A stretch of 64,000 bases of DNA. Source: Candidatus Omnitrophota bacterium. GTDB taxonomy: Bacteria; Omnitrophota; Gorgyraeia; Zapsychrales; JANLHA01. Of the stretch, positions 41,206-60,714 are shown piece after piece. The notes below the pieces were generated by a model, which made no database searches, was not told where the DNA came from, and was given only the letters and a program-made list of their open reading frames with translations. Every line of letters starts with the position of its first letter. Position 1 is the stretch's first letter. The DNA lies in the NCBI GenBank assembly GCA_038222225.1, contig JBBRHV010000005.1, positions 1,824 through 65,823 of the forward strand. The letters run 5' to 3'. Both the position numbers and the translations under genes were made by a program.

Positions 41206-41233
41206 CGGAAGAACTTTTCACAGGAGAATAATC

Positions 41234-41608
41234 ATGCAAGACGGAAAACATGTGATTTTGGTTATTGATGATGAGCAGGATATTTTAAAGGTCGTTCAGG
41301 CGTTTCTTGAAAATCACGGCTATTCTGTTTTAACAGCCAGCTCCGCCGAAGAAGGTGTAAAGATTTATAAAAAGGGGCACCCGGACCTGATCATCGTCGA
41401 TTTAATGATGGAAGAGGTTGATGCCGGGGTGAATTTTGTTAAAGAGGTAAAATTATTGGGAAATACAGCGTCGGTTTATCTTTTGAGCGGCGCAGGTGAT
41501 AGCATGGCGGATAGTATTGATTATGAGGCAATGGGCTTTAGCGGTGTTTTTCAAAAACCCATTGACCGCCAGCGCCTGTTGAGTACGATTCATTCAAAAT
41601 TATCCTAA
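41234..41608 (+). CDS. Stand-alone CheY-like response regulator receiver domain
   Basis: DD acidic pocket, phospho-acceptor Asp in IIVDLMM, and conserved Lys in FQKP. About 124 aa with no output domain. The RBS is aggaga. Confidence 0.75.
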   Translation: MQDGKHVILVIDDEQDILKVVQAFLENHGYSVLTASSAEEGVKIYKKGHPDLIIVDLMMEEVDAGVNFVKEVKLLGNTASVYLLSGAGDSMADSIDYEAMGFSGVFQKPIDRQRLLSTIHSKLS

Positions 41609-41687
41609 GACTACGTCTGAGTATGAGAATGCCTTCCTTTGAAGCGCCATCCAATCGGACGCGCTGTTCTTCAATGGACATAATGCT

Positions 41688-43994: not shown

Positions 43995-44038
43995 TATAAT
44001 GCCGTTTTACAGGTGGCATTTTAAAAAGAGGGTGTGGA

Positions 44039-44284
44039 ATGTGTTTAGCGGTTCCCGGAAAAATTGTAGAGATCATCAATGACGATCCGCTGGAGCGCTC
44101 CGGAAAGGTCAGCTTCGGCGGCATTACCCGTGAAGTCAATTTGGCCTGTGTTCCTGAGGCCAACCCCGGCGAGTATGTTATTGTCCATGTTGGCATGGCC
44201 TTAAGCGTGGTTGATGAAGCGGAAGCACAGCAGATGTTAGAGTATATTCAGTCGGAAGACGACCTTCGCAAAGAGGGACTATGA
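44039..44284 (+). CDS. hypC: Hydrogenase maturation factor HypC
   Basis: [13 protein letters not shown]-terminus. Confidence 0.85.
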
Positions 44285-45369
44285 AATATATTGATGAATA
44301 TCGAGATGCGGGGCTTGTGAAGACTCTGGCCGAAAAGGTGAGGCGCGTTGTGACGCGGCCATGGACGATCATGGAAGTTTGCGGCGGGCAGACGCATGCC
44401 ATTATCAAGTTCGGCATTGATCAGATTTTGCCTAAAGAAATCACGCTGGTTCACGGCCCCGGATGCCCGGTGTGCGTGACATCCGTTGAGGCCATTGATC
44501 AGGCGGTGTTTATCGCAGCCCAGCCCAATGTGATTTTTTGTTCGTTCGGTGACATGTTGAGGGTTCCGGGAACAAAAAAAGATTTGTTGACCGTTAAAGC
44601 TGAGGGCGGGGATGTGCGCAGCGTGTATTCTCCGATGGACGCGGTCGCAATCGCTCAAAAAAATCCAGAGCGCCACGTTGTTTTTTTTGCTGTTGGATTT
44701 GAAACAACCGCTCCGGCCAACGCCAGCGCTATTCATTATGCGCAGGTGCATCAGGTGACAAATATGTCGTTTTTAGTTTCGCATGTTTTGGTTCCGCCGG
44801 TGATCGAGGCGGTTGTTTCATCAAAGAACAATCATATTCAGGGATTTCTGGCCGCTGGACATGTCTGCACGGTGATGGGCTATCATCAATACGAGCGTTT
44901 GGCGAGAGATTATCACATTCCGATCGTGGTGACCGGGTTTGAGCCGCTGGATATTCTGCAGGGGGTTCTGGCGTGCGTGACCCAGCTTGAGAAGGGGGAG
45001 ACGCGTGTTGAAAATGAATATGCCCGTGTTGTGCGCGCCGAAGGAAATCTGCTCGCGCAGGAGATCATGAAAAAAGTGTTTCAGCTTTCCGATCAGAAAT
45101 GGCGGGGGTTGGGAGTTATTCCCGATAGCGGTTTAAAATTGGCAGACAGTTATAACGCGTATGACGCACAAGTTGTGTTTGATGTCAGTCATATTCAGGC
45201 GGAGGAAAATCCGGAGTGTCAGGCAGGCCAGATTCTGCAGGGCTTGAAGAAGTCGGTGGAATGTCCGGCTTTTGGAACGCGTTGCACACCCGAGCATCCG
45301 TTGGGCGCGCCGATGGTGTCTTCCGAAGGCGCCTGCGCGGCGTATTATAAATACAGGAAAAGACACTAA
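44281..45369 (+). CDS. hypD: Hydrogenase maturation factor HypD
   Basis: CGGQTHA, GPGCPVC and CPVC Fe-S motifs. Confidence 0.95.
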
Positions 45370-45545
45370 GACACCGGGCAGTTTCTAGTGTTATAGTGTC
45401 TTAGCCCTGCGGAATTCGCAGAATTCCCGGGATTGGTCTCCCACGCAAAATAAAATTTTGAATGGGACATTATCTTGGCAAATCTGTGATTTGCTCAAGG
45501 CTAAGACAAGCTTTCAGTTTGTGTAGGATATCCTGGTGTCTTTTA
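45362..45545. repeat. Copies of the CTAAGACAC/GTGTCTTAG motif family in the hypD-hypE intergenic region
   Basis: agacactaagacacc lies at the hypD 3' end, and the inverted pair ctaagacac(21 nt)gtgtcttag follows. Further copies are ggctaagacaag and ggtgtctttt, the same motif as in the 27.7-27.96 kb array. Confidence 0.45.
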
Positions 45546-45558
45546 TAAGGAAACACAA

Positions 45559-46593
45559 ATGTTTAATTGTCCGATCCCGAAATCTGATCACGAAAAAATT
45601 TTACTTGGCCATGGTAGCGGCGGAGTCTTGATGCATCAGCTGATTGAAAAAGTTTTTAAAAAGACTTTTGAGAATCCGCTGCTTGCTCAAAATCATGACA
45701 GCACAGTTCTGGACTTTTCTGGAGCAAGGCTGGCCGTCACCACGGATTCCTATGTTATTCATCCGTTGTTTTTTCCCGGCGGGGATATTGGTTCCTTGGC
45801 GGTGCACGGGACAGTGAACGATCTGGCCATGTCCGGCGCCAAGCCGCTGTATCTGACGGTGGGATTTATTTTGGAAGAAGGGTTTGCGGTCGAAGATTTG
45901 CGGCGCATTGTTCAGTCCATGCAGAACGCAGCAGAGGAATCCAATATTCAGATCATTGCCGGCGACACCAAGGTCGTGGATCGCGGCAAAGGCGACGGGG
46001 TCTTTATTAACACAACCGGTATCGGAGTTGTTGAGCATGCCTTAAATATTTCTCCGCGCAGCGTTCAGCCTGGGGATGCGATCATTTTAAGTGGGGATAT
46101 CGGTCGGCACGGCATTGCGATCATGGCCCAACGGGAAGGTTTGCAGTTTGAATCCACCATTGAGAGTGATTCGGCATCTTTGTCAGCCATGATTCTTCCG
46201 CTTTTTCAAAAAAAGATTGATGTTCATTGTTTGCGTGATTTAACCCGTGGCGGGCTGGCCACCGCACTTAATGAGATCGCGCAAGATTCAGGTTTTCACA
46301 TCACGATTGAAGAGAACGAAATCCGCGTGGAGGAACAGGTCCGCGGCGCATGTGAGATCTTAGGCCTGGATCCGCTTTATGTCGCTAACGAAGGGCGCTG
46401 CATTGTTTTTGTTCCGGCTGAGCAGGCCGCAGAGACGCTTTCCACTTTAAGGGAGCATCAGCAAGGCCGGCAGGCGGTCGCGATCGGCTGTGTCTCTGAG
46501 ATACAAGACAAGCGGGTGACTTTAAAAAGTTCGCTAGGCACGGTCCGCATTATTGATATGCTTTCCGGCGAACAGCTTCCGCGGATTTGCTGA
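45559..46593 (+). CDS. hypE: Hydrogenase maturation factor HypE
   Basis: AIR-synthase-like fold with the C-terminal PRIC cysteine. Confidence 0.95.
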
Positions 46594-46691: not shown

Positions 46692-47114
46692 ATGCGTATT
46701 TCTGCCAAATGTGATTATGCCTGCCGGGCTTTGCTGGAGCTTTCTTTGCATTGGCCTAAAAAAGAGCCGTTGCAACTTCAGAATATTTCCGGTAAGCAAA
46801 ATATTCCGGTCAAATATCTGGTTCAGATCTTTATTCAGCTCAAAAGAGACGGGCTTGTCGTAAGCTCCAGAGGAAAAGACGGAGGATATCTTTTAGGAAA
46901 AACGCCGGACGCGATAAGCTTGGGTGACGTTATGCGATGTATGGGAGGAGCGCTTTTATCGAGATCCGATGCTTTAAGGAAAGAACCGTCTGTTTTTAGT
47001 GGGGTATGGGATCAGCTTGAAGGAGCAATGACCACAGTGGTTGATCATGTCACATTTGAAGATATTTGTGCAAAAAGCCAAGAGAAAGATAAAATTTTAA
47101 TTTTTCAGATATAA
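46692..47114 (+). CDS. Rrf2-family transcriptional regulator (IscR/CymR-like)
   Basis: MRISAKCDYACRALLELS... wHTH with the Rrf2 signature, preceded by a TTGACA-16-TATACT promoter. Confidence 0.8.
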   Translation: MRISAKCDYACRALLELSLHWPKKEPLQLQNISGKQNIPVKYLVQIFIQLKRDGLVVSSRGKDGGYLLGKTPDAISLGDVMRCMGGALLSRSDALRKEPSVFSGVWDQLEGAMTTVVDHVTFEDICAKSQEKDKILIFQI

Positions 47115-47169
47115 AAAAATTTTAACTTTAATATTACTAAAATAGTCAACAAGATAAGGTAGGTGGAAA

Positions 47170-47391
47170 TTGGAAAATAAAATGCGCGCTTTGGCTAAAG
47201 CCATTACTTGGAGATTATTTGGGTTTATCTCAACTATCGTGATTGTTTATATATATAGCAAGAACATAAAAGAAGCATTGATGGTTGGCGTAGGAGTCGA
47301 TGGTGTAAAGGTGGTTTTGTATTATGTTCATGAGCGTATTTGGAATCGAGTCAATTTTGGAAGAAAAATTATACCAGAATTCAATATTTAA
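47170..47391 (+). CDS. Small predicted membrane protein (possibly DUF2061-like)
   Basis: 73-aa ORF with two hydrophobic helices, located between the Rrf2 regulator and cysH. Confidence 0.35.
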   Translation: MENKMRALAKAITWRLFGFISTIVIVYIYSKNIKEALMVGVGVDGVKVVLYYVHERIWNRVNFGRKIIPEFNI

Positions 47392-47417
47392 GAAATTTAA
47401 AATAGGATTTTAGAGTT

Positions 47418-48149
47418 ATGAAAAAGGAAAACTTTTTAGAAATTAACAGAGATTTTTCACAGCTGAGCCCAGAAGAAGTTCTTTCATGGGCGTTATCGAA
47501 ATTTGACAAGGAGCGTTTGGCGTTTTCCTCAAGCATGGGGGCGGAAGATCAGGTAATCACGCACATGCTTAAGACCATGGGTTTGAGCATATCAATTTTT
47601 ACAATTGATACAGGGCGCTTATATCCAGAAACGTATGATCTTATTAAGAGAACAGAACAAAAATATGGTTTTCGTTACGATATTTTAGAACCAGAACAAA
47701 CAAAAGTTAATGGCATGGTTTCTGAACATGGGGAAAATTTATTTTATGAAAGTTTAGAATTAAGAAAAATGTGCTGTCATGTAAGAAAACTGGAGCCTCT
47801 TCGCAAAAAAATGTTTACGCTTGATGCCTGGATTTGCGGATTAAGGAAAGAACAATCCGTCACAAGGGCTGAGATTGGAAAAATTGAATGGGACGAAACA
47901 TTTGGAGTTGTTAAAATCAATCCGCTTACGGATTGGACAGAAGATCAGGTTTGGTCTTATATTCGAAAGAACAATATCCCGTATCACGCACTTCATGACA
48001 GCGGATATCCCAGTATCGGATGTGCGCCGTGTACCCGGGCCATTCAGCCTGGTGAAGATGTCAGGGCAGGACGCTGGTGGTGGGAAAATCCCCAGAACCG
48101 TGAATGCGGTTTGCATAGGGGGCCTAAGAAAAAAGGAAATTTGCAATGA
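47418..48149 (+). CDS. cysH: Adenylylsulfate (APS) reductase, thioredoxin-dependent, [4Fe-4S]-type CysH
   Basis: PAPS-reductase fold with the catalytic ECGLH motif, plus the Cys pair CC (KMCCHV) and CxxC (GCAPCT) that are diagnostic of APS-specific Fe-S enzymes. Confidence 0.85.
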
Positions 48150-49030
48150 TGGACACATTAGCGCGCCTTGAAGCAAAAAGTGTTTATATTCTCCGTGAGG
48201 CCTATCGCGAGTTTAAACAGCTGGCCATGTTATGGTCAGTTGGGAAAGACAGCACCGTCCTGTTATGGTTGACGCGTAAAGCTTTTTTTGGGCATGTTCC
48301 TATGCCATTGGTCCATATTGATACGCATTTTAAAATTCCAGAAATGATTGCTTACCGGGACCGCTTGGCCGCCGAATGGCATCTGAATTTGATTTACGGA
48401 GAGAACGCCGAGGCCTTGGCGAATAAGGAGACGTTTCCCGACGGCAACGTAGATCGTTTGACCTGCTGCCGGAAATTGAAAAGCGAAGCCCTTAAAAAAA
48501 CAATTTCCGGAGAATGGCCGCGTTATCGTTTTGATCATAGTCTTGGAAAATATGTGCAGGACGCCAATACGGAAGGGTATACTGGCGTTATTGTCGGCGC
48601 ACGCGCAGATGAAGAAGGGAGCCGGTCTAAGGAGCGGTATTTTTCTCCACGCGACCGGCAGAGCGACTGGGATGTGGCGGGTCAGCCGCCGGAACTTTGG
48701 AATCAATTTAAGACTGATTTTGCGCCGGGCACGCATGTTCGGATTCATCCTCTTTTAGATTGGACAGAGCTGAATATTTGGGAATATATTCAGAGAGAAA
48801 ACATCCCGATCATTGATCTTTATTTTGACAAAGGAAAAGGCTTGCGGTATCGTTCTTTAGGCTGTGCCCCTTGCACGGGGACGGTTGTTTCGTCAGCCAA
48901 AAATGTCGCTGAGATTATTGAGGAACTTAAGAACGGAAAATTTGTAAATATTGCTGAACGTAGCGGCCGCGCTCAAGATAAAGAAGACGGCGGTGGATTA
49001 GAAACATTGCGTCGAGAGGGGTATATGTAA
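48146..49030 (+). CDS. cysD: Sulfate adenylyltransferase subunit 2
   Basis: PP-loop SVGKDS and the CysD family architecture. It overlaps the cysH stop by 4 nt. Confidence 0.9.
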
Positions 49031-49032
49031 TC

Positions 49033-50865
49033 ATGAAAAACACAACAGCCAGAATATTGGAACCGACTCGTGGCGGGATTGAGAAAGAAGAGCAGATGAC
49101 GATTGTCATCGTGGGGCATGTTGATCACGGAAAAAGCACGGTGATCGGCCGGCTTCTTGCAGATACGCGCTCGTTGCCCGAAGGCAAGCTTGAACAGGTG
49201 AAGCGAACGTGTGAAAGAAACGCAAGGCCGTTTGAATACGCCTTTCTTCTTGACGCCTTAAAGGATGAACAGGCTCAGGGAATCACCATTGATAGTGCCA
49301 GGGTTTTTTTCAAAACGCAGAAGAGGAGATATATTATTTTTGATGCCCCTGGACACATTGAGTTTTTGAAAAACATGGTAACCGGAGCGGCGCATGCTCA
49401 GGCCGCGCTTTTGGTTATTGATGCCCATGAAGGCATTAAGGAAAACTCCCGTCGGCACGGATATCTCTTGTCCATGTTAGGAGTTCGGCAGGTCAGCATT
49501 TTGGTGAACAAGATGGATCTTGTGGGGTGGAGCAAGGAAATTTTTGATGGTGTTGTTAAACAGTATTCAGAATTTCTTTTTTCCATCGGGGTTAAGCAGG
49601 TATCGTTTATTCCCATCAGCGCGTTTCACGGCGACAATCTTACCGAGAATTCATCAAGCGCGGGCTGGTATTCCGGATTGACGGTCCTTCAGCAGCTGGA
49701 TGCCTTTAACGTCCCACGGCCCTTGGAGGATTTGCCATTGCGGTACCCTGTGCAGGATATTTATAAATTTACCGAGGAGGGAGACGAGAGGCGCATCGTT
49801 GCCGGTACGATTGAATCAGGAACGGTTTGCGTGGGAGAGGACATCGTTTTTCTTCCGTCGAATAAAACGGCTGGAATTTTGTCAATCGAAGAGTTTAGCC
49901 GTCCACCTGCTGATAGTGCGCACGCCGGACAAGCGGTGGGGGTTACGCTGGATACGCAGCTTTACATTAAGCCCGGTGAGATCATGGTCAAAAAGACGGA
50001 GAGAAATCCATGCGTTTCAACTCGGTTTAAGGCAAATCTTTTTTGGTTGGGAAAAGCTCCGCTCATTAAGAATAAACGGTATTATCTGAAGTTGTCCACC
50101 GCGCGTGTACCGGCCCAGGTTTCCGAGATCTACACAGTTATTGATGCCGCGGAACTTTCTACCACGGCACAAGACGGGCAGGTGAACACTAATGAGGTTG
50201 CGGAGATCGTTGTAGAGACTGAAAAGCCAATTGCTTTTGATCTTGCCGGAGAGATCGAAGCAACGACACGTTTTGTGATCATTGATAATTATGAAATTTC
50301 CGGTGGAGGCATTATAACTGAGGCGTTGAAATCATCGGCCGAGGTCCTGAAAGAGCATGTTCGTCAGCGTGAATTTATCTGGGTTAGGGGAGAAATCAGG
50401 GCGGCAGAACGGCAAAAAAGCATCGGGCATGGAGCGGCTTTTGTTCTTGTAAGCGGGCCCCAGGACACAGGTAAAATCGCTGCGGCCAAGGCGATTGAAT
50501 CCGTGCTGGTAAAGTCAGGCTATAACGCGTATTATCTTGGCGTTTCTAACCTGCTTTGCGGATTGGATGCCGATCTGCTGTTTAAATATGAAGATAAAGG
50601 AGAACATTTACGGCGTCTGGGAGAATTGGCGCACATTATGACGGATTCCGGTCTTATTTTTATAGCGACAGCATCAGATATCGATGAATATGATCTTGCG
50701 CGTTTACGGACATTAGCCGAACCGGTTAAGACATTAGCGATTCATTTTGGAAAAGAGGGAACAGGAGCTCTTGCTTCAGACGGATTTTTTTTGAACAACC
50801 CTTCCATAGATAAAGTGACGGCTCATGTTGTTGATTTGCTAAGAAAACATGATATTGTACCCTGA
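49033..50865 (+). CDS. cysN: Sulfate adenylyltransferase subunit 1 (GTPase CysN) fused to a degenerate APS-kinase-like C-terminal domain
   Basis: G1 motif GHVDHGKST and EF-Tu-like domains. The C-terminal ~180 aa are APS-kinase-like, but the P-loop is SGPQDTGKI rather than GxSGSGKST, and the DGDNxRxGL motif is degraded to [10 protein letters not shown]. Confidence 0.88.
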
Positions 50866-50887
50866 GGAAAGAGAGGGACTTCGTCAC

Positions 50888-51385
50888 ATGTCTGAAGGCA
50901 ATGCGAAAAAAAAGCGAGTTGATCGTCCGATGCGCTTTCTTCCGGTGGGAATTGATATTAAAGGCAAAAAAATTCTTGTTTTTGGCGGAGGGCGGATTGC
51001 TTTGCAGAAGCTGCGCACGATCCTTCTTTTTAACCCAAAAGTCACGGTTGTGGCGCCGAAAATTTTATCCGAGATAAAGGACATGGGAGTAGATTGGGTG
51101 GAAGAAATTTTTAGCCGGAATCATCTGGCAGAAGCATTTCTTGTTTATGCGTGCACTTCGGACCCGGAAACAAACCGTGTCATCGCGAGTGAGGCCGGCG
51201 AGAGAGGAATTCTCTGTAATGTCGCCGACGATACGGATGCCTGCGCTTTTATTTCTCCCGCGGTTGCTGTGGCTGATGATCTGGTTATTTCGGTTAATTC
51301 TCAGGGAAGAAATCCAAATCTGTCTAGGGTGGTAAGAGATTTTATTAAGGAGAGCGTTGATGAATTTCTGCATGGTCGGGATTGA
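50888..51385 (+). CDS. sirC: Precorrin-2 dehydrogenase / siroheme synthase N-terminal-like protein (SirC/CysG-N)
   Basis: Rossmann motif KKILVFGGGRIALQKL and the CysG N-terminal-domain architecture. Confidence 0.7.
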   Translation: MSEGNAKKKRVDRPMRFLPVGIDIKGKKILVFGGGRIALQKLRTILLFNPKVTVVAPKILSEIKDMGVDWVEEIFSRNHLAEAFLVYACTSDPETNRVIASEAGERGILCNVADDTDACAFISPAVAVADDLVISVNSQGRNPNLSRVVRDFIKESVDEFLHGRD

Positions 51386-52337
51386 TTATCATCAGGCGCC
51401 AGTGGCGGTGAGGGAGCGCGCTTTTCTTTCTCGGGATCGCGTCTCGGTAGTGGCGAGGGATCTTATGGCGCTGTTTAAGGCCCAAGGCGTTTTTATTTTA
51501 TCGACCTGTGCCCGGACAGAGATATACGCGCAGGGAATCAGCGTGGAAGAATTGCAGTCGGCTTTTATCATGCTTTGCCAAGGAGAAAAATCTTTTTTAG
51601 AATTACGTCAAGGCAGGGATGCCATTGCGCATCTTTTTACGGTTGCTTCTGGGGCGGAATCTCCGGTTTTTGGTGATTCGAATATTGTTCGTCAGATCAA
51701 GGAAGCGTATTTTTTGGGGCGGGAAACAGGAACGTTGACCAGGCTTCTTTCCCGGGTTTTGGAAAGGACGTTGTGCGCGGGTCGAGATATACGCAGGGCG
51801 TTGCAGCTCACACAGAGAGAAGGGGATGTTGCTGTTCGGGCAATTCAGCTGGCGATTCAAAAACATAAGGGCCTGAAGGGAAAAAATATTTATGTGATTG
51901 GGTGCGGCGTGGTCGGACAGTCTTTGATCGAAGAGCTGTGTCAGCAACGGGCACGGATTCAGATCGTAGCCAACCGACGGCATGATCGGGCGTCGTTCAT
52001 CGCGCAGGAACATGGCTGTTTGGCAGTACGCTTTGAAGATTTTTATAACGGTTTAGCCGAAGCAGATCTGATTTTTAGCGCCACCAACAGCCCTCATTAT
52101 GTTGTATCTAGGGATATGTTTGAGCGCAGGGTTCCTGCGGATAAAGAAATGGTTATTTTTGATTTGGCGGTCCCGCGGGATATTGACAATAACATTGAGG
52201 GGTTTTCGGGGGTTAGGATTTATACCATTGACGACATAGGAGCTCCGGGAGAGGAAAGGCTTGTTTCCCAGGCTCGGCATATTGCACATTGCAAAGCAAA
52301 GGCGTTTTTTGCCAGGGAGAAGATCCATGCGGTTTAG
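51357..52337 (+). CDS. hemA: Glutamyl-tRNA reductase (short form, lacks C-terminal dimerisation domain)
   Basis: N-terminus MVGIDYHQAPVAVRERAFLS, catalytic Cys in LSTCARTEIY, and a NADPH-binding domain. At 326 aa it is shorter than the ~420-aa canonical enzyme. Confidence 0.85.
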   Translation: MMNFCMVGIDYHQAPVAVRERAFLSRDRVSVVARDLMALFKAQGVFILSTCARTEIYAQGISVEELQSAFIMLCQGEKSFLELRQGRDAIAHLFTVASGAESPVFGDSNIVRQIKEAYFLGRETGTLTRLLSRVLERTLCAGRDIRRALQLTQREGDVAVRAIQLAIQKHKGLKGKNIYVIGCGVVGQSLIEELCQQRARIQIVANRRHDRASFIAQEHGCLAVRFEDFYNGLAEADLIFSATNSPHYVVSRDMFERRVPADKEMVIFDLAVPRDIDNNIEGFSGVRIYTIDDIGAPGEERLVSQARHIAHCKAKAFFAREKIHAV

Positions 52338-52983
52338 AATCGGTACGCGGCCGAGCCCTTTAGCATTAGCACAGGTGCAGGAGGTTGTCACGCTCATAAG
52401 ACACAAGGGAGTCGATATGGATGTTGACATCGTTCCTATTGATTCTGACGGAGATTTAGACAAAAAGACGCCGTTTATACAAATAGAAGGGACGGATTTT
52501 TTTACCCGTAGACTTGAGGAAGCCTTGCGCCGGAATGAGATTGATTTGGCGGTGCATAGCGCTAAAGATTTAGAAGATGATTTACCGGAAGATTTGACGA
52601 TCGCGTTGATGACACCGTCCTTGAGTTCTTGTGAGTGTCTGGTTGCTCGAGAGAAGGGGTATTCTTTGGAGACCTTACCGGAGGCAAGCCGCATTGGAAC
52701 GAGCAGCCGCAAAAGGCAGAAAGCCCTTTTTCGATACCGGGCAGATTTTGTTGTCAAAGGCATTCGAGGCAATATAGAGGAACGATTGCAGCAGTTGGAT
52801 CATGGTGATTATGAGGCTCTTATTATGGCGCATGCGGCTCTGTTACGGCTGGGGATGGAAGGACGAATCAGTGAGATTATTTCCGGGGACATTATGCCTC
52901 CGCATCCTTTGCAGGGCAGGATTGCGGTTCAAGTCTTGAGCGAGAGGGAGGATCTTTTGAAATTATTAGGGGAATTGTGCTGA
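52327..52983 (+). CDS. hemC: Porphobilinogen deaminase, domains 1-2 only (C-terminal domain 3 absent)
   Basis: MRFRIGTRPSPLALAQ N-terminus and the HSAKDLEDD motif. The ORF ends after about 219 aa at ...LLGELC, before the region that carries the dipyrromethane-cofactor cysteine in canonical HemC. Confidence 0.75.
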   Translation: MRFRIGTRPSPLALAQVQEVVTLIRHKGVDMDVDIVPIDSDGDLDKKTPFIQIEGTDFFTRRLEEALRRNEIDLAVHSAKDLEDDLPEDLTIALMTPSLSSCECLVAREKGYSLETLPEASRIGTSSRKRQKALFRYRADFVVKGIRGNIEERLQQLDHGDYEALIMAHAALLRLGMEGRISEIISGDIMPPHPLQGRIAVQVLSEREDLLKLLGELC

Positions 52984-54389
52984 TGAGAACCACTCAGGGA
53001 AAAGTATATTTAGTGGGAGCCGGAGCGGCGGGCAGGGACTTGATCACAGTTCGGGGCCTGGGTATTTTACAGCAGGCGAATGTTGTCATTTATGACTATC
53101 TTACGGATAGGGCGCTGTTGGCCGAAATAAAAGAAGGCGCTGAGAGTTTTAATTGCCGTGATTTCGGAAAGGATCGAGAAGGAACGTCTAAGGACGCGCA
53201 GGATAAGATTAATGGGATGCTGGTTTCCCGGGCAAGGCAGGGAAAGATGGTTGTCCGACTCAAGAACGGGGATCCGATGATTTTTGGGAGAGCGTCCGAA
53301 GAGCTTGAGGCATTGCGAAAAGCCAGAATAGAATTTGAAATCGTTCCTGGAATATCCGCGGCGCAGGCTGCCGCTGCGTATTCTGGGATTCCGCTGACTG
53401 ACCGCAGCAGCGCCAAGAGCGTTGTTTTTGTGACGGGGCACCAAGCGCAAGGGGAAACAGCGAATCCAGTTGATTGGAAAAGCATCTCAGCTAACGGCAC
53501 GATTGTTCTGTATATGGCGGTCAAGACTATCCCGCGCATTGCCGCAACTCTGATCCAGGCAGGAAAACCGGCGAATACGCCGGTAGCGGCAATCTCTCAT
53601 GCCGGCAGGATAGAGCAGACGATCGTGATCAGCCGGCTTAAAGCGATCGCCTCTGATGTAAAAAAAGGGGGCATTGTTTCTCCGGCAGTTTTTATTATCG
53701 GTGATGTGGTTCTCAGAGAAAAAGCGTTCAATTGGTTTAAAAAGAATCAGCGCATTTTATATACCGGTACTTCCGGGCACAGAACTTCGTCCCGGGGAAC
53801 GGTTTTTCAGCAAGCGTTGATCCAAATTAAACCGATCAAAGATTATACGCATTTCGATAAACACCTTTGCGGTATTGATTCTTTTGATTGGGTTATTTTT
53901 ACGAGCCGCCACAGCGTTCAGTATTTTTTTGAACGGCTTGCTAAAGTTGGGCGTGATTCACGGGCATTGCATGGCGTTGGAGTTGCCGCGATCGGGACAA
54001 TGACCGCGAAACGTCTTTTAGATTTTGGGATCACGGCGGATTTGATTTCCCGTCAGGAATCTTCCCGGGGGCTATTGGCCGCGCTTAAACGGAGCAAGAT
54101 TGAAGGAAAAAGAATTTTTTTTCCCCGATCTAATATCGCGGACAAAGAACTTCCTTTGCAGATCCGGGAGCTGGGCGCAAAAGTCGTTACGAGCGCGGCG
54201 TATCGCAATGTTTCTCCGGAAGGTCTTCCGAATTGGGAAGCGGGCTTTTTTGATGAGATTGTGTTTACAAGCCCTTCGGGAGTGCGCAATTTTATCAAAC
54301 GGTATGGCCACCCCCCTCGAAAAGTAAAGATCAGATGTATCGGAGGCGTCACACGGGCGCAGGCCAAACAATCAAGAGTGATTGCGTGA
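52977..54389 (+). CDS. cobA: Uroporphyrinogen-III C-methyltransferase / uroporphyrinogen-III synthase fusion (CobA-HemD)
   Basis: N-terminal SUMT domain (VYLVGAGAAGRDLITVRG, GDPMIFGR). The C-terminal ~220 aa are HemD-like. Confidence 0.85.
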   Translation: MLMRTTQGKVYLVGAGAAGRDLITVRGLGILQQANVVIYDYLTDRALLAEIKEGAESFNCRDFGKDREGTSKDAQDKINGMLVSRARQGKMVVRLKNGDPMIFGRASEELEALRKARIEFEIVPGISAAQAAAAYSGIPLTDRSSAKSVVFVTGHQAQGETANPVDWKSISANGTIVLYMAVKTIPRIAATLIQAGKPANTPVAAISHAGRIEQTIVISRLKAIASDVKKGGIVSPAVFIIGDVVLREKAFNWFKKNQRILYTGTSGHRTSSRGTVFQQALIQIKPIKDYTHFDKHLCGIDSFDWVIFTSRHSVQYFFERLAKVGRDSRALHGVGVAAIGTMTAKRLLDFGITADLISRQESSRGLLAALKRSKIEGKRIFFPRSNIADKELPLQIRELGAKVVTSAAYRNVSPEGLPNWEAGFFDEIVFTSPSGVRNFIKRYGHPPRKVKIRCIGGVTRAQAKQSRVIA

Positions 54390-55381
54390 TGGTTCAAAAC
54401 AAAAAGAAAACTCATTGGACTCAATGGAAGAGCAAGCTCATTGAGGATCCGGTATTGCCTTATTTTGTTATTGAGGGCAAGAGTACTGTTCAGCCGATCA
54501 AAAGCATGCCCGGAGTGAACAGGTTTTCTGTTGATGAGCTTGTGAAAGATGTTGATTCTGCCAGACAACTCGGAATAAAAACAATCTTGCTGTTCGGTGT
54601 TGTATCCAATAGAAAAAAAGATGATTTAGGAGGCAATGCTTTTTGTCCGGATGATCTTATTTCAAGGGCTGTGAAGGAGATAAAGGATAAAATTAGAGGG
54701 GTAACGGTGATAACAGATGTCTGTCTTTGCGCATACACCACGCATGGGCATTGCGGGATCTTAACGGGACATGAAGGGGCAATAGATAGACGTAAGACGC
54801 TTAAGGCGCTTTCGGAGATGGCCCTTCGGCATGCTGAGGCCGGGGCCGATTGGGTGGCTCCTTCTGCGATGGCAAAAGGTCAGGTGGCGGCTATCCGACA
54901 GAAACTTGATTCCAACGGATTTCATCGGGTCAACATACTTGGCTATTCGGCAAAATTCGCCTCTGTGTTTTATGGGCCGTTTCGGGAAGCGGCGAAGTCA
55001 GCGCCGGCCTTTGGAGACCGTCGGGAATATCAGTTTGCTTCGGCAGACAGCGCCCGCGCGTTGCGTAGAATTGCCGCAGACATAAGGGAGGGGGCGGATA
55101 TGGTGATGGTGAAGCCGGCCCTTGCGTATCTCGATGTGATTCGCCAAGCAAAAGAAAAATTTCGTGTTCCGGTGGCGGCGTATAATGTGAGCGGGGAATA
55201 CGCGCTGATGAAGCTCGGCGCAAAAAAAGGATATTGGGATGAACAGGCTGCTCTTGCTGAGATCATGACTTCGATCCGACGCGCCGGAGCGGATGTGATC
55301 ATCTCGTATCATGCCAAGGACATTGTTCGGCGGAAAAACGCAGAGAAAAAAACTCTAAAAAGTTTTAATGGGGGAGAGTAG
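54389..55381 (+). CDS. hemB: Porphobilinogen synthase (delta-aminolevulinate dehydratase)
   Basis: Conserved active-site region (VMVKPALAYLDVI, YNVSGEYAL). About 330 aa; the track ORF starts upstream at 54335 in the same frame. Confidence 0.9.
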   Translation: MVQNKKKTHWTQWKSKLIEDPVLPYFVIEGKSTVQPIKSMPGVNRFSVDELVKDVDSARQLGIKTILLFGVVSNRKKDDLGGNAFCPDDLISRAVKEIKDKIRGVTVITDVCLCAYTTHGHCGILTGHEGAIDRRKTLKALSEMALRHAEAGADWVAPSAMAKGQVAAIRQKLDSNGFHRVNILGYSAKFASVFYGPFREAAKSAPAFGDRREYQFASADSARALRRIAADIREGADMVMVKPALAYLDVIRQAKEKFRVPVAAYNVSGEYALMKLGAKKGYWDEQAALAEIMTSIRRAGADVIISYHAKDIVRRKNAEKKTLKSFNGGE

Positions 55382-55384: not shown

Positions 55385-57070
55385 ATGAAAGCCAAAGAAG
55401 ATTTGACGCAGGTTGAAAAAGATAAGATCGAAATTGGGTTTGATGCTGATTTTAAGGAGATTGCCAAACGTTCGCTGGAGTCTATTCCACCAAATGAAGT
55501 GGCACTGTGGAAATGGGCCGGGGTTTATCAGCAGCTGCAAAAAGGGTTTTTTATGATCCGCCTGCGGATCCCGGGAGGCCTTATGACCAGCGAACAACTT
55601 GAGCGGGCCGCTGATCTGTCTTCGGAGCTGGCTCAGGACCAGCTGTGCATTACAACACGGCAGTGTTTGCAATTTCATTGGATCCGCAAGGAAGATATTC
55701 ATAAAATTTTGGAAGGAATGAAAGAAGTCGGGATCCTGACAAAAAATGCCTGCGGAGATGTGACCCGAAATGTGGTGACTTGTCCGCTTCCCGGTGTTTG
55801 TCCGCATGAGGAAGGGGACACGTTGAATATGCTGCAGCTGATCGCTGATGATCCGGAGATGTTGGATCAGCAGCGGAATTTGCCACGCAAGCATAAAATC
55901 AGCGTGGCAGGTTGCGGACGTGCCTGCGGGCAGACGCTGATGAACTGTCAGGGATGGCATCCGATTCATCGAGAAGGCCGAACGGGATGGAGGTTTTACG
56001 CGGGCGGAGGTTTGGGGGCTAAGCCGTATTTGGGAAAATTAATTTTTGATTGGGTTCCGGAAGATCTTGTGGTGGATGTCGCGCGTGCTGTGACAGAAGT
56101 ATTCCGCCGTTTGGGGAATCGTAAGGTCAGGGCTTTAGCGAGGCTGAAGATCGTTGTGGATCGTCTCGGGGTCAAGGGTTTTGCCCAGGAAGTTCTTCAG
56201 GAATTAAGCGATCGTAAGGTATCCGGCATCGCAGGAATCGTTGTTGCGGAGTCTTCCGCGGAAATAGAAGAGAGCTTTCTTCAGGGGCAAGCGGTTATCC
56301 CTCAGCGGCAGACGGGCCTTTATGCGGTCCGCGCGATGATTCAGCGCAGTGAATTAACAAGTCAGGAAGCGCGGAGGTTTGCACAGTGGGCGCAGGGGTA
56401 CGGAGACGGAACAGTTGTTTTTACACACCGGCAGAATTTGGTATTTCGCTCGGTTGCGTTCAATAAGACCGAAGAACTGTTGGGGTTGCTGAAAAATGCG
56501 GGGTATCGTATTGAGGGGTTTGAACACTTACCGGATATGGTTGCCTGCGTAGGAACAACGGTGTGTAACCTGGCGGTGTCGGATACGCCCAACACGTATC
56601 GGAGCATGATGGAGAAACTCACATCGGACGCGGATTGGTGGAAAAATATCGGGCCTTTAAGGATTAACATGAATGGTTGTCCTAATTCGTGCGGGCAGCA
56701 TGCGGTTGCGGATATCGGATTGCGCGGGCTGCGCAAAAGGACTGAACAGGGATCGGAGGAAGGATATAGTATTTTTGTCGGCGGCTCCTTGTCCGGCGCC
56801 GGGCATCTCGGGGAATACGTGTGTGATGCAACGGCTTCCCAGGTAATTGCGACCGTTAAGAAGATTTTGACAGTCTATCTTCAGAAGCGCTTGTCGCCGG
56901 AGGAATATTTTGGTGTTTTTTCTCGACGGGTAACCGGAGCCGGAATGAAAGACATGCTGGGAAGCAGAGAAGTCGAATCTGATTTTGTGCAGGAAAGAAA
57001 TCAGAAGTATCAGGCTGTTTTTCAAGCAACAATTGATTCGACCCGAGAACAAAAAAGAGATAAATCATGA
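55385..57070 (+). CDS. sir: Ferredoxin-type assimilatory sulfite (nitrite/sulfite) reductase hemoprotein, siroheme/[4Fe-4S]
   Basis: Two NIR_SIR ferredoxin-like half domains and the siroheme-cluster Cys motifs (CGDVTRN...C; CPNSCGQH). Confidence 0.85.
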   Translation: MKAKEDLTQVEKDKIEIGFDADFKEIAKRSLESIPPNEVALWKWAGVYQQLQKGFFMIRLRIPGGLMTSEQLERAADLSSELAQDQLCITTRQCLQFHWIRKEDIHKILEGMKEVGILTKNACGDVTRNVVTCPLPGVCPHEEGDTLNMLQLIADDPEMLDQQRNLPRKHKISVAGCGRACGQTLMNCQGWHPIHREGRTGWRFYAGGGLGAKPYLGKLIFDWVPEDLVVDVARAVTEVFRRLGNRKVRALARLKIVVDRLGVKGFAQEVLQELSDRKVSGIAGIVVAESSAEIEESFLQGQAVIPQRQTGLYAVRAMIQRSELTSQEARRFAQWAQGYGDGTVVFTHRQNLVFRSVAFNKTEELLGLLKNAGYRIEGFEHLPDMVACVGTTVCNLAVSDTPNTYRSMMEKLTSDADWWKNIGPLRINMNGCPNSCGQHAVADIGLRGLRKRTEQGSEEGYSIFVGGSLSGAGHLGEYVCDATASQVIATVKKILTVYLQKRLSPEEYFGVFSRRVTGAGMKDMLGSREVESDFVQERNQKYQAVFQATIDSTREQKRDKS

Positions 57071-59424
57071 AGCCAGAAAAAATATTTGAGGCCCGGAGGT
57101 GTTTAGAACAGGGAAAAAATGACGAGGCCATTGATCTCTTGAGGTCAGAAGAAGCGCCGCATCATGCTGAGGCTTGTGTATTGTTAGCCCGGGCGTATTA
57201 TCAGCGCGGGGATACACGAGGCGATATTTATAGCAGTCATTTTTTTGCCCAGCGGGCTTTGTCCCTTGGGTTGCAAACAGATGAAGTGTTGGCAATGTAC
57301 GCGGTGACCTCTTTTCAGAAAGAACAGTATACAGAGGCTGTTTTTGCGTTTGAACAGTTTGTGACCGCTGATTCGCCAGCCGGGACGATGTTGTTGTTTG
57401 GGTTGGCCCTGGTTTACAGCGGCAGGGAAATGGAAGGAAAACTTTGGATCGAGAAGGCTAGCCAAAAAGATCCAGCCTGTCAGGAGAAGGCGAAGGAGGG
57501 GGTTCTTTTTTCTCAGAAAGAAAAGACATTAAAGATATCGTCGACCGGGAACATGTATGAATCCCGTTTGGAGCAGCTAAAGTTTTCCGAGCAAGCAGAA
57601 ATCCCAGCCCTTTATGAGCATCAGCCGTTGTCGATGCTGCGCGGTCAGGGAGAGTCGCTAAAAGATTTTGATTGGATGGACAAGAATGTTCCCTGTCAGA
57701 AGGCCTGTCCGGCGGGAACAGATATTCCGGAATACTTGAACGCGATTTTTTTAAAAGAATATGACAGGGCTTACCGGATCAATCTGTGGGACAATGTTTT
57801 TCCCGGGGTTTTAGGACGTGTTTGTGCCCGGCCGTGTGAGGAAAAATGCCGCCATGGCTGGCCGGGGCTTGGACAGCCGGTTGCGATTTGTTGGAGTAAG
57901 CGGGCCGCGGCAGATCACAGGTCAAGTGAGACCGGACGGCTTAAAGCTCTTTTTTCTTCCAGTGGCAAGAGCGTTGCAGTCATTGGCGCTGGTGTGGCGG
58001 GCTTGGCAGCCGCCAGGCAGCTGGCCCTGTGTGGACATGCTGTCACTGTGTATGAAAAACATAAGATTCCGGGTGGGATGATGAATCAAGGAATTCCGGA
58101 GTTTCGTTTGCCTCGGGAGGTTATCCAAAGGGAAATAGAACAGGTTCTGGCTTGCGGGGTTCGTTTAGAATGCGGCAAGGACATTGGCAAAGATATTTTG
58201 TTTGAAGATTTTGTAAAATCTCATGAGGCGGTAATTGTGGCAGCCGGAACATTGCGCCCTAATAAGCTTGAGCTTCCCGGCGCTGAGATTTCCGGAATTT
58301 ATCATGGGCTGGAATTTTTGTTAAGCGTTAATGAGTATGGGCGGCGGGATATCGGGAAGAATGTCATTGTTATCGGAGGAGGCTTTACCGCGATGGATTG
58401 CGCCCGTACCGCTTGGCGGTTGGGGGCTAAAAGCGTCCGTGTTCTTTATCGCCGCTCAGTTGAGGAGATGCTGATTACGCCCGGCGAACTGGAGGAGTTG
58501 AGCCAGGAGGGTATACCTATGGAATTTTTAATAGGCCCTGTGGCATACCTTGGCCAGGCAGGTCAAGGCTTGAGTGCGGTACGTTTTATCCGTAATGAAC
58601 TGGGGGCGCCAGATCAAAGCGGACGACGGCGACCGGTGCCGATTCAAGGAAGCGAATTTAACGTTGAGGCTGATATGGTTCTTTTAGCTACCGGGCAATT
58701 TGCTGACACGTCTTGGATAGGAGGGCCGTTGAGCGATAAAATTTGCGATAGCTCGGGAAGGGTCTTGGGCACAGGGGGATGCCGGACAAATATCGAGAAT
58801 GTTTTTCTGGCCGGGGATTTCGCGCAGGGAGCGTCATCTTTGATTAGCGCAATTGCTCATGCCAAACAAACGGCACGTGAGGTTGACCGATTTTTGACCG
58901 GCAAAGAGCGGTTTAAGGATGTTGTGCGTGTTCAGGACGCACAGACCACCGGACGGATCCGCGAAATGGATGCTGTTCCCCGGGTTGATATGCCGGTCAT
59001 CACAACGGATCAAAGAGACCTGCGGGCTGAAGTCGAAAAAGGATTAGATCCGGCTTTAGCCATCGACGAAACTCAGCGCTGCTATCTTTGTCATTACAAA
59101 TTTGAGATTGATCAGGATAAGTGCATTTATTGCGATTGGTGTATTAAAGCTAAGCCGCGGCCTAATTGTATCCTGAAGGTTAAAGAAATTATCCGTGACG
59201 AAGAAGGGCGGACCAAAGATTTTGTATTTGCCAAGAGCAGCGAAGAAACTAAGTTTATTTATATTAATCAGGAAGATTGTATCCGTTGTCATGCCTGTGT
59301 TTTGGCTTGTCCGGTGGGGTGTATTCATGTTCAGAAGGTGTCCCTGCAGACAAAAGTTTGTGATGGTTCACAAAAAGGAAAGAGCGCTGGATCGAATTCT
59401 TGTGGTTCTTGCGGGTCTCGATAA
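57067..59424 (+). CDS. TPR-repeat / GltD-like NAD(P)H flavin oxidoreductase / 2x[4Fe-4S] ferredoxin fusion protein
   Basis: N-terminal ~200 aa of TPR-like repeats. The central region has GltD-type Fe-S Cys motifs (CQKACPAG, GRVCARPCEEKC) and two dinucleotide-binding motifs (VAVIGAGVAG, VIVIGGGFTAMD). The C-terminal region has CIYCDWC...CP and CIRCHACVLACP. Confidence 0.7.
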   Translation: MKPEKIFEARRCLEQGKNDEAIDLLRSEEAPHHAEACVLLARAYYQRGDTRGDIYSSHFFAQRALSLGLQTDEVLAMYAVTSFQKEQYTEAVFAFEQFVTADSPAGTMLLFGLALVYSGREMEGKLWIEKASQKDPACQEKAKEGVLFSQKEKTLKISSTGNMYESRLEQLKFSEQAEIPALYEHQPLSMLRGQGESLKDFDWMDKNVPCQKACPAGTDIPEYLNAIFLKEYDRAYRINLWDNVFPGVLGRVCARPCEEKCRHGWPGLGQPVAICWSKRAAADHRSSETGRLKALFSSSGKSVAVIGAGVAGLAAARQLALCGHAVTVYEKHKIPGGMMNQGIPEFRLPREVIQREIEQVLACGVRLECGKDIGKDILFEDFVKSHEAVIVAAGTLRPNKLELPGAEISGIYHGLEFLLSVNEYGRRDIGKNVIVIGGGFTAMDCARTAWRLGAKSVRVLYRRSVEEMLITPGELEELSQEGIPMEFLIGPVAYLGQAGQGLSAVRFIRNELGAPDQSGRRRPVPIQGSEFNVEADMVLLATGQFADTSWIGGPLSDKICDSSGRVLGTGGCRTNIENVFLAGDFAQGASSLISAIAHAKQTAREVDRFLTGKERFKDVVRVQDAQTTGRIREMDAVPRVDMPVITTDQRDLRAEVEKGLDPALAIDETQRCYLCHYKFEIDQDKCIYCDWCIKAKPRPNCILKVKEIIRDEEGRTKDFVFAKSSEETKFIYINQEDCIRCHACVLACPVGCIHVQKVSLQTKVCDGSQKGKSAGSNSCGSCGSR

Positions 59425-59439: not shown

Positions 59440-60714
59440 TTGAGGAAATCAATAGTTATGGGGTTGTCAAGCAAAGTGAACAACAAGAAATTATTACGCT
59501 CAGCCCGCGCGTGTTTGGTCGGAGGGGTCAACAGCCCTGTTCGCAGTTTTTCCGCGGTTGGGCAGGATTCGTTTATCATCAAAAAGGGGCGAGGGCCATA
59601 TCTGTATGATCATGATGGAAAACGCTATATCGATTACGTGCTGTCGTGGGGTGCGGCGATTTTTGGCCATGCGCATTCTCCGATTGTTAAGGCTGTTCAG
59701 GATAGTGCTCGCAATGGAACGCATTTTGGAGTTACAACTTGCGTAGAGATCGAATTAGCCCAAATGATTCAGGGGGCGATCTCTTTTGTTGAAAAGGTCC
59801 GTTTTGTGAATTCAGGGACCGAGGCGGTCATGGGTGCGGTGCGGCTGGCCAGGGGGTTTACCGGCAGAGACATTATTCTGAAATTTGAACATTCGTATCA
59901 TGGTCATGCTGATTATCTGTTGGCAAAGGCAGGATCAGGATTAGCAACACTTGGGATTCCGGCTAGTAAGGGGGTGCCTAAAGATTTCACCCGAAAAACA
60001 TTGATTGCCCCTGCCGGAGATTGGGAGGCCGTGGAAAGAATCTTTCAACGGCATGGCAAGCAGATTGCCGCTGTGCTGGTGGAGCCCGTTGGAGGGAATT
60101 ACGGCGTGACCCCTCCGGATCAGGAGTTTTTACAAAAATTGCGCCGGATAACACAGCGGAATGGAGCCCTGCTAATCTTTGATGAAGTGATTACAGGGTT
60201 TCGTTTTCATTATGGCGCGGCAGCGGATCTTTTTGGCGTTACGCCTGATTTGATCACGTTAGGAAAGATTATTGGAGGAGGGCTTCCGGTCGGGGCGTTT
60301 GCCGGCCCGGAAAAAATTATGCGGCACTTGGCTCCGTTAGGGCAGGTTTATCAGGCGTCAACCTTTGCCGGGAATCCGATTGTCATGGCAGCAGGGAAAG
60401 CAACGCTGAGGGCTCTTAAGGAGAAGAAAAAGGAGTATTCCCGGCTCAGTCGGTATGGAAATGTATTGGCCTCGACATTGAAAGAATCGCTTTCAAGAAG
60501 AAAGATGAATGTTTCTGTTGTTCAGCATCATTCGATGCTGAGCGTCAGATTTCTTGACGGCAGGGTATTTAGAAAGTTCTACCAGGGCATGTTTCAGCAA
60601 GGGATCTTTCTGGCCCCGTCTGAATTTGAAGTGAATTTTATTTCATTTGCCCATCAGGAGAAAGATATTCATCGCACGCAATCTGCGATGGAGCGCTCGA
60701 TCGCTGCGCTTTAA
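59440..60714 (+). CDS. hemL: Glutamate-1-semialdehyde 2,1-aminomutase
   Basis: GGVNSPVRSF N-terminus and the class III aminotransferase PLP Lys in LITLGKIIGGG. Confidence 0.9.
   Translation: MRKSIVMGLSSKVNNKKLLRSARACLVGGVNSPVRSFSAVGQDSFIIKKGRGPYLYDHDGKRYIDYVLSWGAAIFGHAHSPIVKAVQDSARNGTHFGVTTCVEIELAQMIQGAISFVEKVRFVNSGTEAVMGAVRLARGFTGRDIILKFEHSYHGHADYLLAKAGSGLATLGIPASKGVPKDFTRKTLIAPAGDWEAVERIFQRHGKQIAAVLVEPVGGNYGVTPPDQEFLQKLRRITQRNGALLIFDEVITGFRFHYGAAADLFGVTPDLITLGKIIGGGLPVGAFAGPEKIMRHLAPLGQVYQASTFAGNPIVMAAGKATLRALKEKKKEYSRLSRYGNVLASTLKESLSRRKMNVSVVQHHSMLSVRFLDGRVFRKFYQGMFQQGIFLAPSEFEVNFISFAHQEKDIHRTQSAMERSIAAL

Follow-up and report, generated by a model that had tools for sequence, protein, structure and literature searches.

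A GltD-like iron–sulfur flavoprotein with a TPR-like domain as the putative reductase subunit of a two-gene assimilatory sulfite reductase in Omnitrophota and related bacteria

DsrL is the NAD(P)H oxidoreductase partner of the dissimilatory sulfite reductase DsrAB (Loeffler et al. 2020, PMC7596348). It consists, from the N terminus, of a domain with two [4Fe-4S] clusters, a flavin adenine dinucleotide (FAD) domain with an embedded NAD(P) domain, a linker of about 100 residues and a C-terminal 2×[4Fe-4S] ferredoxin domain; look-alikes encoded beside pyruvate or ketoisovalerate:ferredoxin oxidoreductase genes were set aside from DsrL by the same authors (PMC7596348). For assimilatory sulfite reductases, a 2026 survey considered only NADPH-dependent (CysIJ-type) and ferredoxin/ferredoxin–NADP reductase-dependent enzymes (PMC13188885). 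No such sulfite reductase partner is listed in a review of GltD-like proteins (PMC8097209), and full-text searches of the literature turned up no account of a GltD- or DsrL-like partner for an assimilatory sulfite reductase. A candidate for such a pair is described here from a 64,000-nucleotide stretch of DNA (the window) of a Candidatus Omnitrophota bacterium (assembly GCA_038222225.1, contig JBBRHV010000005.1, positions 1,824 to 65,823). The gene in question is the open reading frame (ORF) at 57067–59424 (+), termed the target, and its presumed partner is the sirohaem reductase ORF at 55385–57070 (+), termed SIR.

Judged from gene order and homologs, the target and the upstream SIR are likely to form a two-component assimilatory sulfite reductase that depends on pyridine nucleotides, with the target as its reductase subunit; in many Planctomycetes-Verrucomicrobia-Chlamydiae (PVC) bacteria and in some other lineages, the target would replace CysJ. 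That the protein could shuttle electrons from NAD(P)H to the sulfite reductase had been proposed in a first-pass annotation of the window; the proposal is now supported by synteny, by translational coupling and by two independent gene fusions, with the electron transfer itself remaining a prediction. In the window, the ATG of the target and the TGA of SIR share the letters ATGA (4-nt overlap of the two ORFs), as the first-pass annotation had recorded.

More than 120 full-length homologs of the target were found (51–68 % identity), the nearest of them in an Omnitrophica metagenome-assembled genome (MAG; 68 % identity); their existing names are generic, such as "FAD-dependent oxidoreductase", "glutamate synthase beta-like/ferredoxin" and even "formate dehydrogenase major subunit". 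Loci were surveyed with one genome per species (80 loci) by using tblastn with the window proteins and ORF analysis. Homologs with the N-terminal extension occur in a long form (~770–830 aa) and a short form (~675–725 aa), and wherever upstream DNA was available for homologs carrying the N-terminal domain, SIR was located directly 5′ on the same strand (56 of 56 loci). The distance from the SIR stop to the target start has a median of −4 nt in these loci, equal to the ATGA overlap of the window, with 29 pairs overlapping and 48 within 30 nt. Most hosts are MAGs assigned to Omnitrophica, Verrucomicrobiota, Kiritimatiellia and Lentisphaerae/Victivallales; the three members with other labels (Armatimonadetes, Polyangiaceae, Auribacterota) carry the SIR pair as well (3/3). 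Reverse look-up from SIR homologs (54–59 % identity) returned the partner downstream in three of three cases, and the list of SIR homologs parallels that of the target homologs contig by contig. The occurrence of the same protein beside sir in other genomes, which the first-pass annotation had left to be checked, is thus borne out from both sides.

The genes cysH, cysD, cysNC and cysK and those for sirohaem synthesis recur around the pair. A consistent linkage of the orthologs to glutamate synthase or pyrimidine degradation, named in the first-pass annotation as the pattern that would speak against an electron donor for SIR, was looked for in the loci, and no gltB or pyrimidine-degradation neighbour was present in any of those surveyed. 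Likewise, no dsr genes were seen at the window locus or at the 56 SIR-linked loci, and none of the surveyed loci showed genes for nitrate or nitrite around the pair.

SIR and the reductase were also found joined in single polypeptides. P0121/P0241 (1161 aa, from a Victivallales MAG) is a single ORF that unites SIR with the reductase core, SIR standing in place of the TPR-like domain; this fusion was found in at least three independent assemblies (NCBI, ENA, JGI), each time in the order cysH-cysD-cysNC-fusion, and it is nested inside the SIR-linked clade. A second fusion clade (P0122–P0124, ~1110–1130 aa; bootstrap 100) shares 37–40 % identity with the first and is the sister group of all other sequences; its loci have the order cysH-cysK-fusion and cysK-fusion. 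That SIR and the reductase were fused twice independently, both times within operons for cysteine biosynthesis, argues strongly that they act together as a single enzyme. Two giant ORFs (loci L005 and L021) were considered as additional fusions and rejected as high-GC read-through with low-complexity upstream translation.

The target product is a TPR-like/GltD-like/ferredoxin-domain iron–sulfur flavoprotein of 785 aa, as assigned from the ORF, Pfam, AlphaFold2 and homologs, and all of its parts lie on the + strand. The N-terminal TPR-like helical domain (57067–57516; aa 1–150, nine helices) was delimited by Pfam, PDB matches, AlphaFold2 and conservation. It is followed by an N-terminal Fe–S domain (Fer4_20; 57649–57936; aa ~195–290), placed by Pfam and by alignment to 4ylf_B and 9bov_A, and by the FAD- and NAD(P)H-binding Rossmann module (57964–58902; aa ~300–612), placed by Pfam Pyr_redox_2, Foldseek and phmmer. 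A linker from the flavoprotein body to the ferredoxin domain (58903–59076; aa ~613–670) was taken from the AlphaFold2 secondary structure, and the C672-x2-C675 pair with the 2×[4Fe-4S] ferredoxin domain (59077–59361) from Pfam (Fer4, Fer4_7, Fer4_10).

The Pfam matches are TPR_19 at aa 13–50 (marginal; 25.9 bits versus a cut-off of 25), Fer4_20 at aa 206–286, Pyr_redox_2 at aa 302–598 and Fer4 at aa 731–753. The AlphaFold2 model (71 homologs in the alignment) has a mean predicted local distance difference test (pLDDT) of 90.8 and a predicted template modelling score (pTM) of 0.87, and contains in order nine helices at aa 3–150, a short low-confidence linker, the GltD-like body, and the folded linker and ferredoxin domain to about aa 764. 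Domain annotation and model therefore agree with the TPR-like, GltD-like and ferredoxin fusion described in the first-pass annotation. Its two Rossmann motifs were found as GAGVAGL (around aa 307) and GGGFTAMD (around aa 437), and its two C-terminal ferredoxin motifs as eight Cys in two groups, C686-x2-C689-x2-C692-x8-C701 and the canonical C738-x2-C741-x2-C744-x3-C748-P; these eight are predicted to be the ligands of two [4Fe-4S] clusters. The closest solved structures, for aa ~205–620, are NfnABC, StnABC, NfnI-L, NfnB, GltD and dihydropyrimidine dehydrogenase (DPD) (Foldseek and phmmer against the PDB), and PDB structures of this kind match the GltD-like body only. The C-terminal tail (aa 765–785; 59359–59424), CDGSQKGKSAGSNSCGSCGSR, is Cys-rich, disordered in the model and not kept in homologs.

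Conservation was read from an alignment of 71 full-length homologs (53–67 % identity). The first-pass annotation had counted two N-terminal Fe–S Cys motifs; in place of two full four-Cys motifs, the N-terminal Fe–S domain holds six invariant Cys (C210, C214, C253, C257, C261 and C275), together with invariant D200, W203 and H263. Y461-R462-R463 (YRR) is invariant too, as is the C672-x2-C675 pair, which sits just ahead of the ferredoxin domain. In the ferredoxin domain itself, Cys 686, 689, 692, 701, 738 and 741 are invariant, and C744 and C748 are present in at least 90 % of the homologs. These sixteen Cys are conserved across the SIR-linked, PFOR-linked (pyruvate:ferredoxin oxidoreductase-linked), stand-alone and distant-fusion clades and in the homolog of Aromatoleum described below; YRR is conserved in all compared clades, and the Aromatoleum homolog has VRS at this position.

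NfnB (4ylf_B), NfnABC (9bov_A) and StnABC were aligned to the target by using HMMER. C210 and C214 correspond to Cys47 and Cys51 of NfnB, and C253, C257 and C261 to its Cys90, Cys96 and Cys100. The NfnB ligand Glu117 is aligned with K278, and the invariant C275 lies three residues before it and is likely to be the fourth ligand of the proximal cluster. The equivalents of NfnB Cys39 and Cys42, taken as D202 and D205 by their spacing from C210 (the HMMER alignment starts at C47), are variable in the family (D/Q/H and E/A/G, respectively). Sixteen Cys would be the exact number for four [4Fe-4S] clusters, and since the sixteen conserved residues fit this number, we infer that C672 and C675 probably complete the distal cluster with C210 and C261. 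In NfnB, YRR accommodates the 2′-phosphate of NADP(H), and the motif is characteristic of the DsrL-2 type, which prefers NADP(H) (PMC7596348); because it is invariant among the 71 homologs, NADPH is the predicted donor.

In the proposed mechanism, NADPH would reduce the FAD of the GltD/NfnB-type module, from which single electrons would move on to the N-terminal Fe–S domain and its two [4Fe-4S] clusters, the proximal one presumably held by C214, C253, C257 and C275 and the distal one by C210 and C261, probably with C672 and C675. Next in the path would be the C-terminal ferredoxin domain, with two [4Fe-4S] clusters of its own, carried on a linker of ~60 residues. This built-in ferredoxin would dock on SIR and deliver six electrons, one each time, to the [4Fe-4S]-sirohaem centre for the reduction of sulfite to sulfide. 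The target would thereby take over the function of CysJ, or that of free ferredoxin together with ferredoxin–NADP reductase, through a module of the DsrL/KorC type.

The N-terminal domain matches consensus and designed TPR proteins in the PDB with E values of 3e-6 to 1e-5; Pfam TPR models other than TPR_19 all score under their cut-offs, and its weak matches to generic TPR proteins have 26–32 % identity. The label TPR-like is justified by these matches, a canonical TPR being unproven. The domain carries the motif QRGDxRGDxYSS..FA..A, in which R47, G48, D49, G52 and D53 are invariant in long-form homologs, and short-form homologs retain only its first ~85 residues, motif included. A HMMER search of 1.84 billion cluster representatives with this domain gave 45 matches; all strong ones were N termini of the same architecture and the remainder were weak matches to generic TPR proteins. 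The domain is present where SIR is a separate polypeptide, and is missing from the fusion of the SIR-linked clade, from the PFOR-linked paralogs and from the stand-alone paralogs. This distribution suggests a SIR-docking adaptor, that is, a domain that may hold the reductase on SIR.

Homologs without the N-terminal domain (~560–620 aa) have SIR directly 5′ in no case. A PFOR of ~1200 aa is encoded immediately 5′ of such a homolog at 11 proteobacterial loci of Gamma- and Alphaproteobacteria (L061, L063, L064, L066–L071, L073 and L079; e.g., L064 6351–11794); the homologs, of ~610 aa, are translationally coupled to PFOR and form a clade with bootstrap 100, to which the look-alikes set aside from DsrL correspond. 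On plasmid 2 of Aromatoleum aromaticum EbN1, the product of EBN1_RS21825 (L091 4890–9594; 595 aa) has 35.6 % identity over 98 % of the core, with all 16 Cys retained, and the stop of the gene overlaps the start of the alpha and beta genes of a 2-oxoacid:acceptor oxidoreductase. From these arrangements, the PFOR-linked and EbN1 loci are likely to encode pyruvate or 2-oxoacid:NADP+ oxidoreductase systems. KorABC of Azoarcus evansii is reportedly a 2-oxoglutarate:NADP+ oxidoreductase, and the EbN1 arrangement is presumably the korCAB of that enzyme, which is taken here as a lead and not as a result. Other TPR-less paralogs have neither SIR nor PFOR among their neighbours (L074 9989–11815, L076 10037–11725, L078 9977–11665, L059 and L065; all in PVC MAGs). 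In some Kiritimatiellales MAGs, a tandem TPR-less copy of 571–588 aa follows the SIR-target pair (L036 6151–7866, L045 7170–8903, L072 1648–3414); it branches inside the SIR-linked clade, and is thus a recent duplication.

SIR (55385–57070, +) was assigned by Pfam, NCBIfam and PDB matches as a 561-aa monomeric NirA-type sirohaem-[4Fe-4S] sulfite (or nitrite) reductase, with the Pfam architecture NIR_SIR_ferr and NIR_SIR in two copies each. Its best NCBIfam matches are to ferredoxin--nitrite reductase and to the NirA family, with the best models below cut-off (PRK09566, 248.6 versus 594; PRK09567, 240.7 versus 523), and its best PDB matches are 3b0h (199 bits) and 1zj8 (157 bits). The closest solved relatives are ferredoxin-dependent enzymes of the NirA type, namely the nitrite reductases of plants and NirA of M. 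tuberculosis, which far outscore CysI and plant SiR; a one-electron Fe–S donor fits this place in the ferredoxin-dependent NirA branch. Among the matches listed, a large group of ~820-aa proteins from Nitrospira and Persephonella (P0127–P0161 and others) carries NIR_SIR with a C-terminal TusA domain (PF01206), a further kind of sulfite reductase fusion.

The target was compared with DsrL by the published criteria; no DsrL was found in the PDB, and a plasmid search gave KorC-like and GltD-like genes and no DsrL. The two share the domain order of the core, the linker, a sirohaem sulfite reductase as partner and, for DsrL-2, the YRR motif. The full DsrL domain order is present in the target by Pfam, AlphaFold2 and the sixteen Cys, and neither the target nor its SIR-linked homologs are linked to pyruvate or ketoisovalerate oxidoreductase genes. 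The target is nevertheless no DsrL by the first criterion of PMC7596348, since there is no dsrAB context and no dsr cluster at the locus. Unlike in DsrL, the partner is a monomeric assimilatory NirA-type SIR instead of DsrAB, the gene stands in a cys/sirohaem operon instead of a dsr cluster, and a TPR-like domain is added at the N terminus. DsrL has Ser or Thr at the position of NfnB Cys39 and Cys or Arg at that of Cys42 (PMC7596348), whereas the positions that correspond to them by spacing are variable in the target family. The first-pass annotation had not recognised the architecture from characterised sulfite reductase systems; this holds for the added TPR-like domain, whereas the core has the architecture of DsrL.

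KorC-type and PFOR-linked proteins resemble the target over the whole core (35–56 % identity, 16 Cys kept) and are also translationally coupled to a ferredoxin-dependent enzyme; unlike the target they have no TPR-like domain, and their partner is a 2-oxoacid oxidoreductase, with electron flow probably directed towards NADP+ reduction. The target has SIR, and no 2-oxoacid:ferredoxin oxidoreductase, beside it, and the PFOR-linked sequences form a clade of their own. CysJ, the flavoprotein of the E. coli-type CysIJ enzyme, offers the functional parallel, as an NADPH-oxidising subunit that passes single electrons to an adjacently encoded sirohaem haemoprotein, which is the role proposed for the target. 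CysJ is, however, unrelated in fold and cofactors: it is a diflavin protein, with a flavin mononucleotide (FMN) flavodoxin and an FAD ferredoxin–NADP reductase part and no Fe–S cluster, whereas one FAD and four [4Fe-4S] clusters are predicted for the target, which is not matched by the Pfam models flavodoxin, FAD_binding_1 or NAD_binding_1. NfnB, NfnI-L, GltD and the N-terminal module of DPD share the FAD/NADPH fold and the N-terminal Fe–S domain, but have neither such a C-terminal ferredoxin domain nor a TPR domain, are partnered by NfnA, GltB or an FMN domain, and differ in their distal-cluster ligands. NirB, the large subunit of NADH-dependent nitrite reductase, shows that a flavoprotein module using pyridine nucleotides can be linked, covalently or genetically, to a sirohaem module of the NIR_SIR type (e.g., the P0202 architecture), but with a flavoprotein of another subtype, a [2Fe-2S] BFD-like domain, fusion on the N-terminal side and no ferredoxin domain.

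Several observations weigh against a dedicated sulfite reductase subunit. Nitrite reductases are the closest solved relatives of SIR, and it is the operon context that points to sulfite as the substrate; monophyly of the SIR-linked clade has 50 % bootstrap in the neighbour-joining tree; and the tandem TPR-less second copy that follows the pair in some Kiritimatiellales loci is left unexplained by the docking idea. In the AlphaFold2 model of the fusion P0121, both modules are folded (pLDDT 88.1), with a disordered 20-residue linker (aa 536–555) between them and their relative placement unset (pTM 0.58), so that no SIR-reductase interface is supported; the model is compatible with a mobile arrangement without being evidence for one. 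The lack of a confident interface would also suit a general NADPH:ferredoxin-type oxidoreductase (Nfn-like or ferredoxin–NADP reductase-like housekeeping) that is co-transcribed to provide reducing power, as would the TPR-less paralogs, which stand alone or beside other ferredoxin-dependent enzymes and mark the module as generic. Such a general role is unlikely, however, in view of the SIR adjacency at 56 of 56 loci with a median start/stop distance of −4 nt, the independent fusions to SIR in two lineages and a family-specific N-terminal domain that is confined to the SIR-linked, unfused forms. The pair could also be read as a nitrite reductase of the assimilatory, NAD(P)H-dependent kind, a counterpart of NirB split over two genes: NirB is an established combination of a flavoprotein with NIR_SIR (P0202 architecture), and ferredoxin–nitrite reductases are the best matches of SIR (3b0h, 199 bits; PRK09566, 249 bits). 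The neighbours, however, are consistently cysH, cysD, cysNC and cysK, with no nitrate or nitrite genes seen; all NCBIfam scores of SIR lie far under the nitrite reductase cut-offs; and NirA of Mycobacterium tuberculosis (1zj8, 157 bits) is a sulfite reductase. A nitrite reductase is for these reasons a distinctly improbable reading.

For an opposite or branched mode, with electrons passing from the sirohaem enzyme to NAD(P)+ in the manner of DsrL-1, or bifurcating to a low-potential acceptor, it can be said that the closest solved structures are subunits of bifurcating enzymes (NfnB, NfnI-L, NfnABC, StnABC), that DsrL-1A is biased to NAD+ reduction (PMC7596348) and that the host is apparently an anaerobe with a Hox-type hydrogenase. 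Against it stand the biosynthetic context of cys and sirohaem genes, a YRR motif like that of DsrL-2 and NfnB, which use NADPH, and the fact that neither an NfnA-like second subunit nor a second acceptor gene is conserved beside the pair; this mode is accordingly regarded as very improbable. Finally, all NCBIfam and Pfam matches of the target are to GltD-like families, as would be expected of a mis-assigned glutamate synthase small subunit, DPD subunit or AegA/YgfK-type protein. The scores, however, lie far under the curated cut-offs (TIGR01317 (GOGAT_sm_gam), 218.1 versus 447.7; TIGR01318, 228.5 versus 482.95; TIGR01316 (gltA), 289.9 versus 471.75), as does the best of them (PRK12771, 407 versus 516), and the paralogs likewise remain under the cut-offs; no neighbour of the gltB, preA or xanthine dehydrogenase type was present at any of the 80+ loci. 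With its partner genes absent from the loci, a GltD, DPD, AegA or YgfK assignment was rejected, and hardly any weight is left to it.

Returning to the target as the reductase subunit of SIR, what is known is the DsrL/KorC-type NADP(H) Fe–S flavoprotein, and what appears to be new is its probable recruitment, widespread in PVC bacteria, as the reductase of a NirA-type SIR, presumably by way of a TPR-like domain. On balance, we are inclined to regard SIR and the target as a third class of assimilatory sulfite reductase, besides CysIJ and the free-ferredoxin enzymes, with a DsrL/KorC-type NADPH-oxidising subunit that carries a tethered ferredoxin and with a TPR-like adaptor for the selection of the partner. 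If so, the family would serve as a plug-in module by which NADP(H) is connected directly to otherwise ferredoxin-dependent enzymes, among them assimilatory SIR, DsrAB, PFOR and 2-oxoglutarate:ferredoxin oxidoreductase, with partner specificity set by add-on domains or by fusion, and it would provide an evolutionary link between the electron supply of assimilatory and that of dissimilatory sulfite reduction. With its fusions and adaptor domains, the pair would be a natural example of a single reductase module being redirected to various ferredoxin-dependent enzymes, which could be of use for engineering NADPH-driven versions of such enzymes.

Annotation is affected as well. Metabolic reconstructions score assimilatory sulfate reduction as complete only if cysJ or the ferredoxin route is recognised, and the gene is annotated generically in many of its hosts (Verrucomicrobiota, Kiritimatiellia, Lentisphaerota, Omnitrophota and related MAGs). 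Pontiella sulfatireligans assimilates sulfate, and the supplementary gene table for it lists zero sulfite reductase genes; MAGs labelled Pontiella carry the SIR-target pair. A "cysJ" is listed for Pontiella desulfatans, an entry that in the table may stand for a true CysJ or for a target-type protein. Recognition of the pair would correct such annotations and define a type of NADPH-sulfite reductase with Fe–S clusters in place of FMN.

In the window, the pair stands in a gene string on the + strand. Upstream of SIR (46692–55381, +), Pfam and NCBIfam identified an Rrf2/CymR-like regulator, cysH (of the adenosine 5′-phosphosulfate (APS) reductase type), cysD, cysN(C), sirC (of the CysG N-terminal domain type), hemA, hemC, cobA-hemD and hemB. 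The last gene of the string is hemL (glutamate-1-semialdehyde aminomutase; 59440–60714, +; Pfam Aminotran_3), 15 nt 3′ of the target, so that the location between sir and hemL given in the first-pass annotation is correct by the ORF list and Pfam. As annotated, the string from the regulator to hemL would account for the activation and reduction of sulfate and for the complete sirohaem pathway. The first-pass annotation had also stated that no CysJ-like flavoprotein is present, and no ORF of the CysJ type was found among the ORFs of at least 200 aa scanned in the window. Within the region 47418–50865, the cysH product matches the thioredoxin-dependent APS reductase model TIGR02055 (265 bits, over the cut-off), and in the 610-aa CysN the APS-kinase domain is limited to its first half (positions 4–81 of 152 of the Pfam APS_kinase profile). 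The pathway probably takes the APS route, and the CysC portion may be a vestige.

Outside this string, the window contains a replication-origin region, housekeeping genes and genes for a Hox-type [NiFe] hydrogenase together with hyp genes. Directly 5′ of the sulfate-assimilation operon (34343–46593), a Rex-like regulator, hypB, the hydrogenase genes and hypF/C/D/E were identified; the hydrogenase is of the Hox-type, NAD(P)-linked [NiFe] kind, with a hoxF-like NuoE/F fusion, hoxU, hoxY and hoxH. A hydrogenase of this type suggests an anaerobic or microaerobic host that may exchange H2 with NAD(P)H. Near the start of the window (1443–12050), gyrB, dnaN and dnaA are encoded on the − strand (1443–6744), followed by yidC, parA and parB on the + strand, and the sign of the GC skew switches at ~4–6 kb; the window thus appears to span the chromosomal replication origin.

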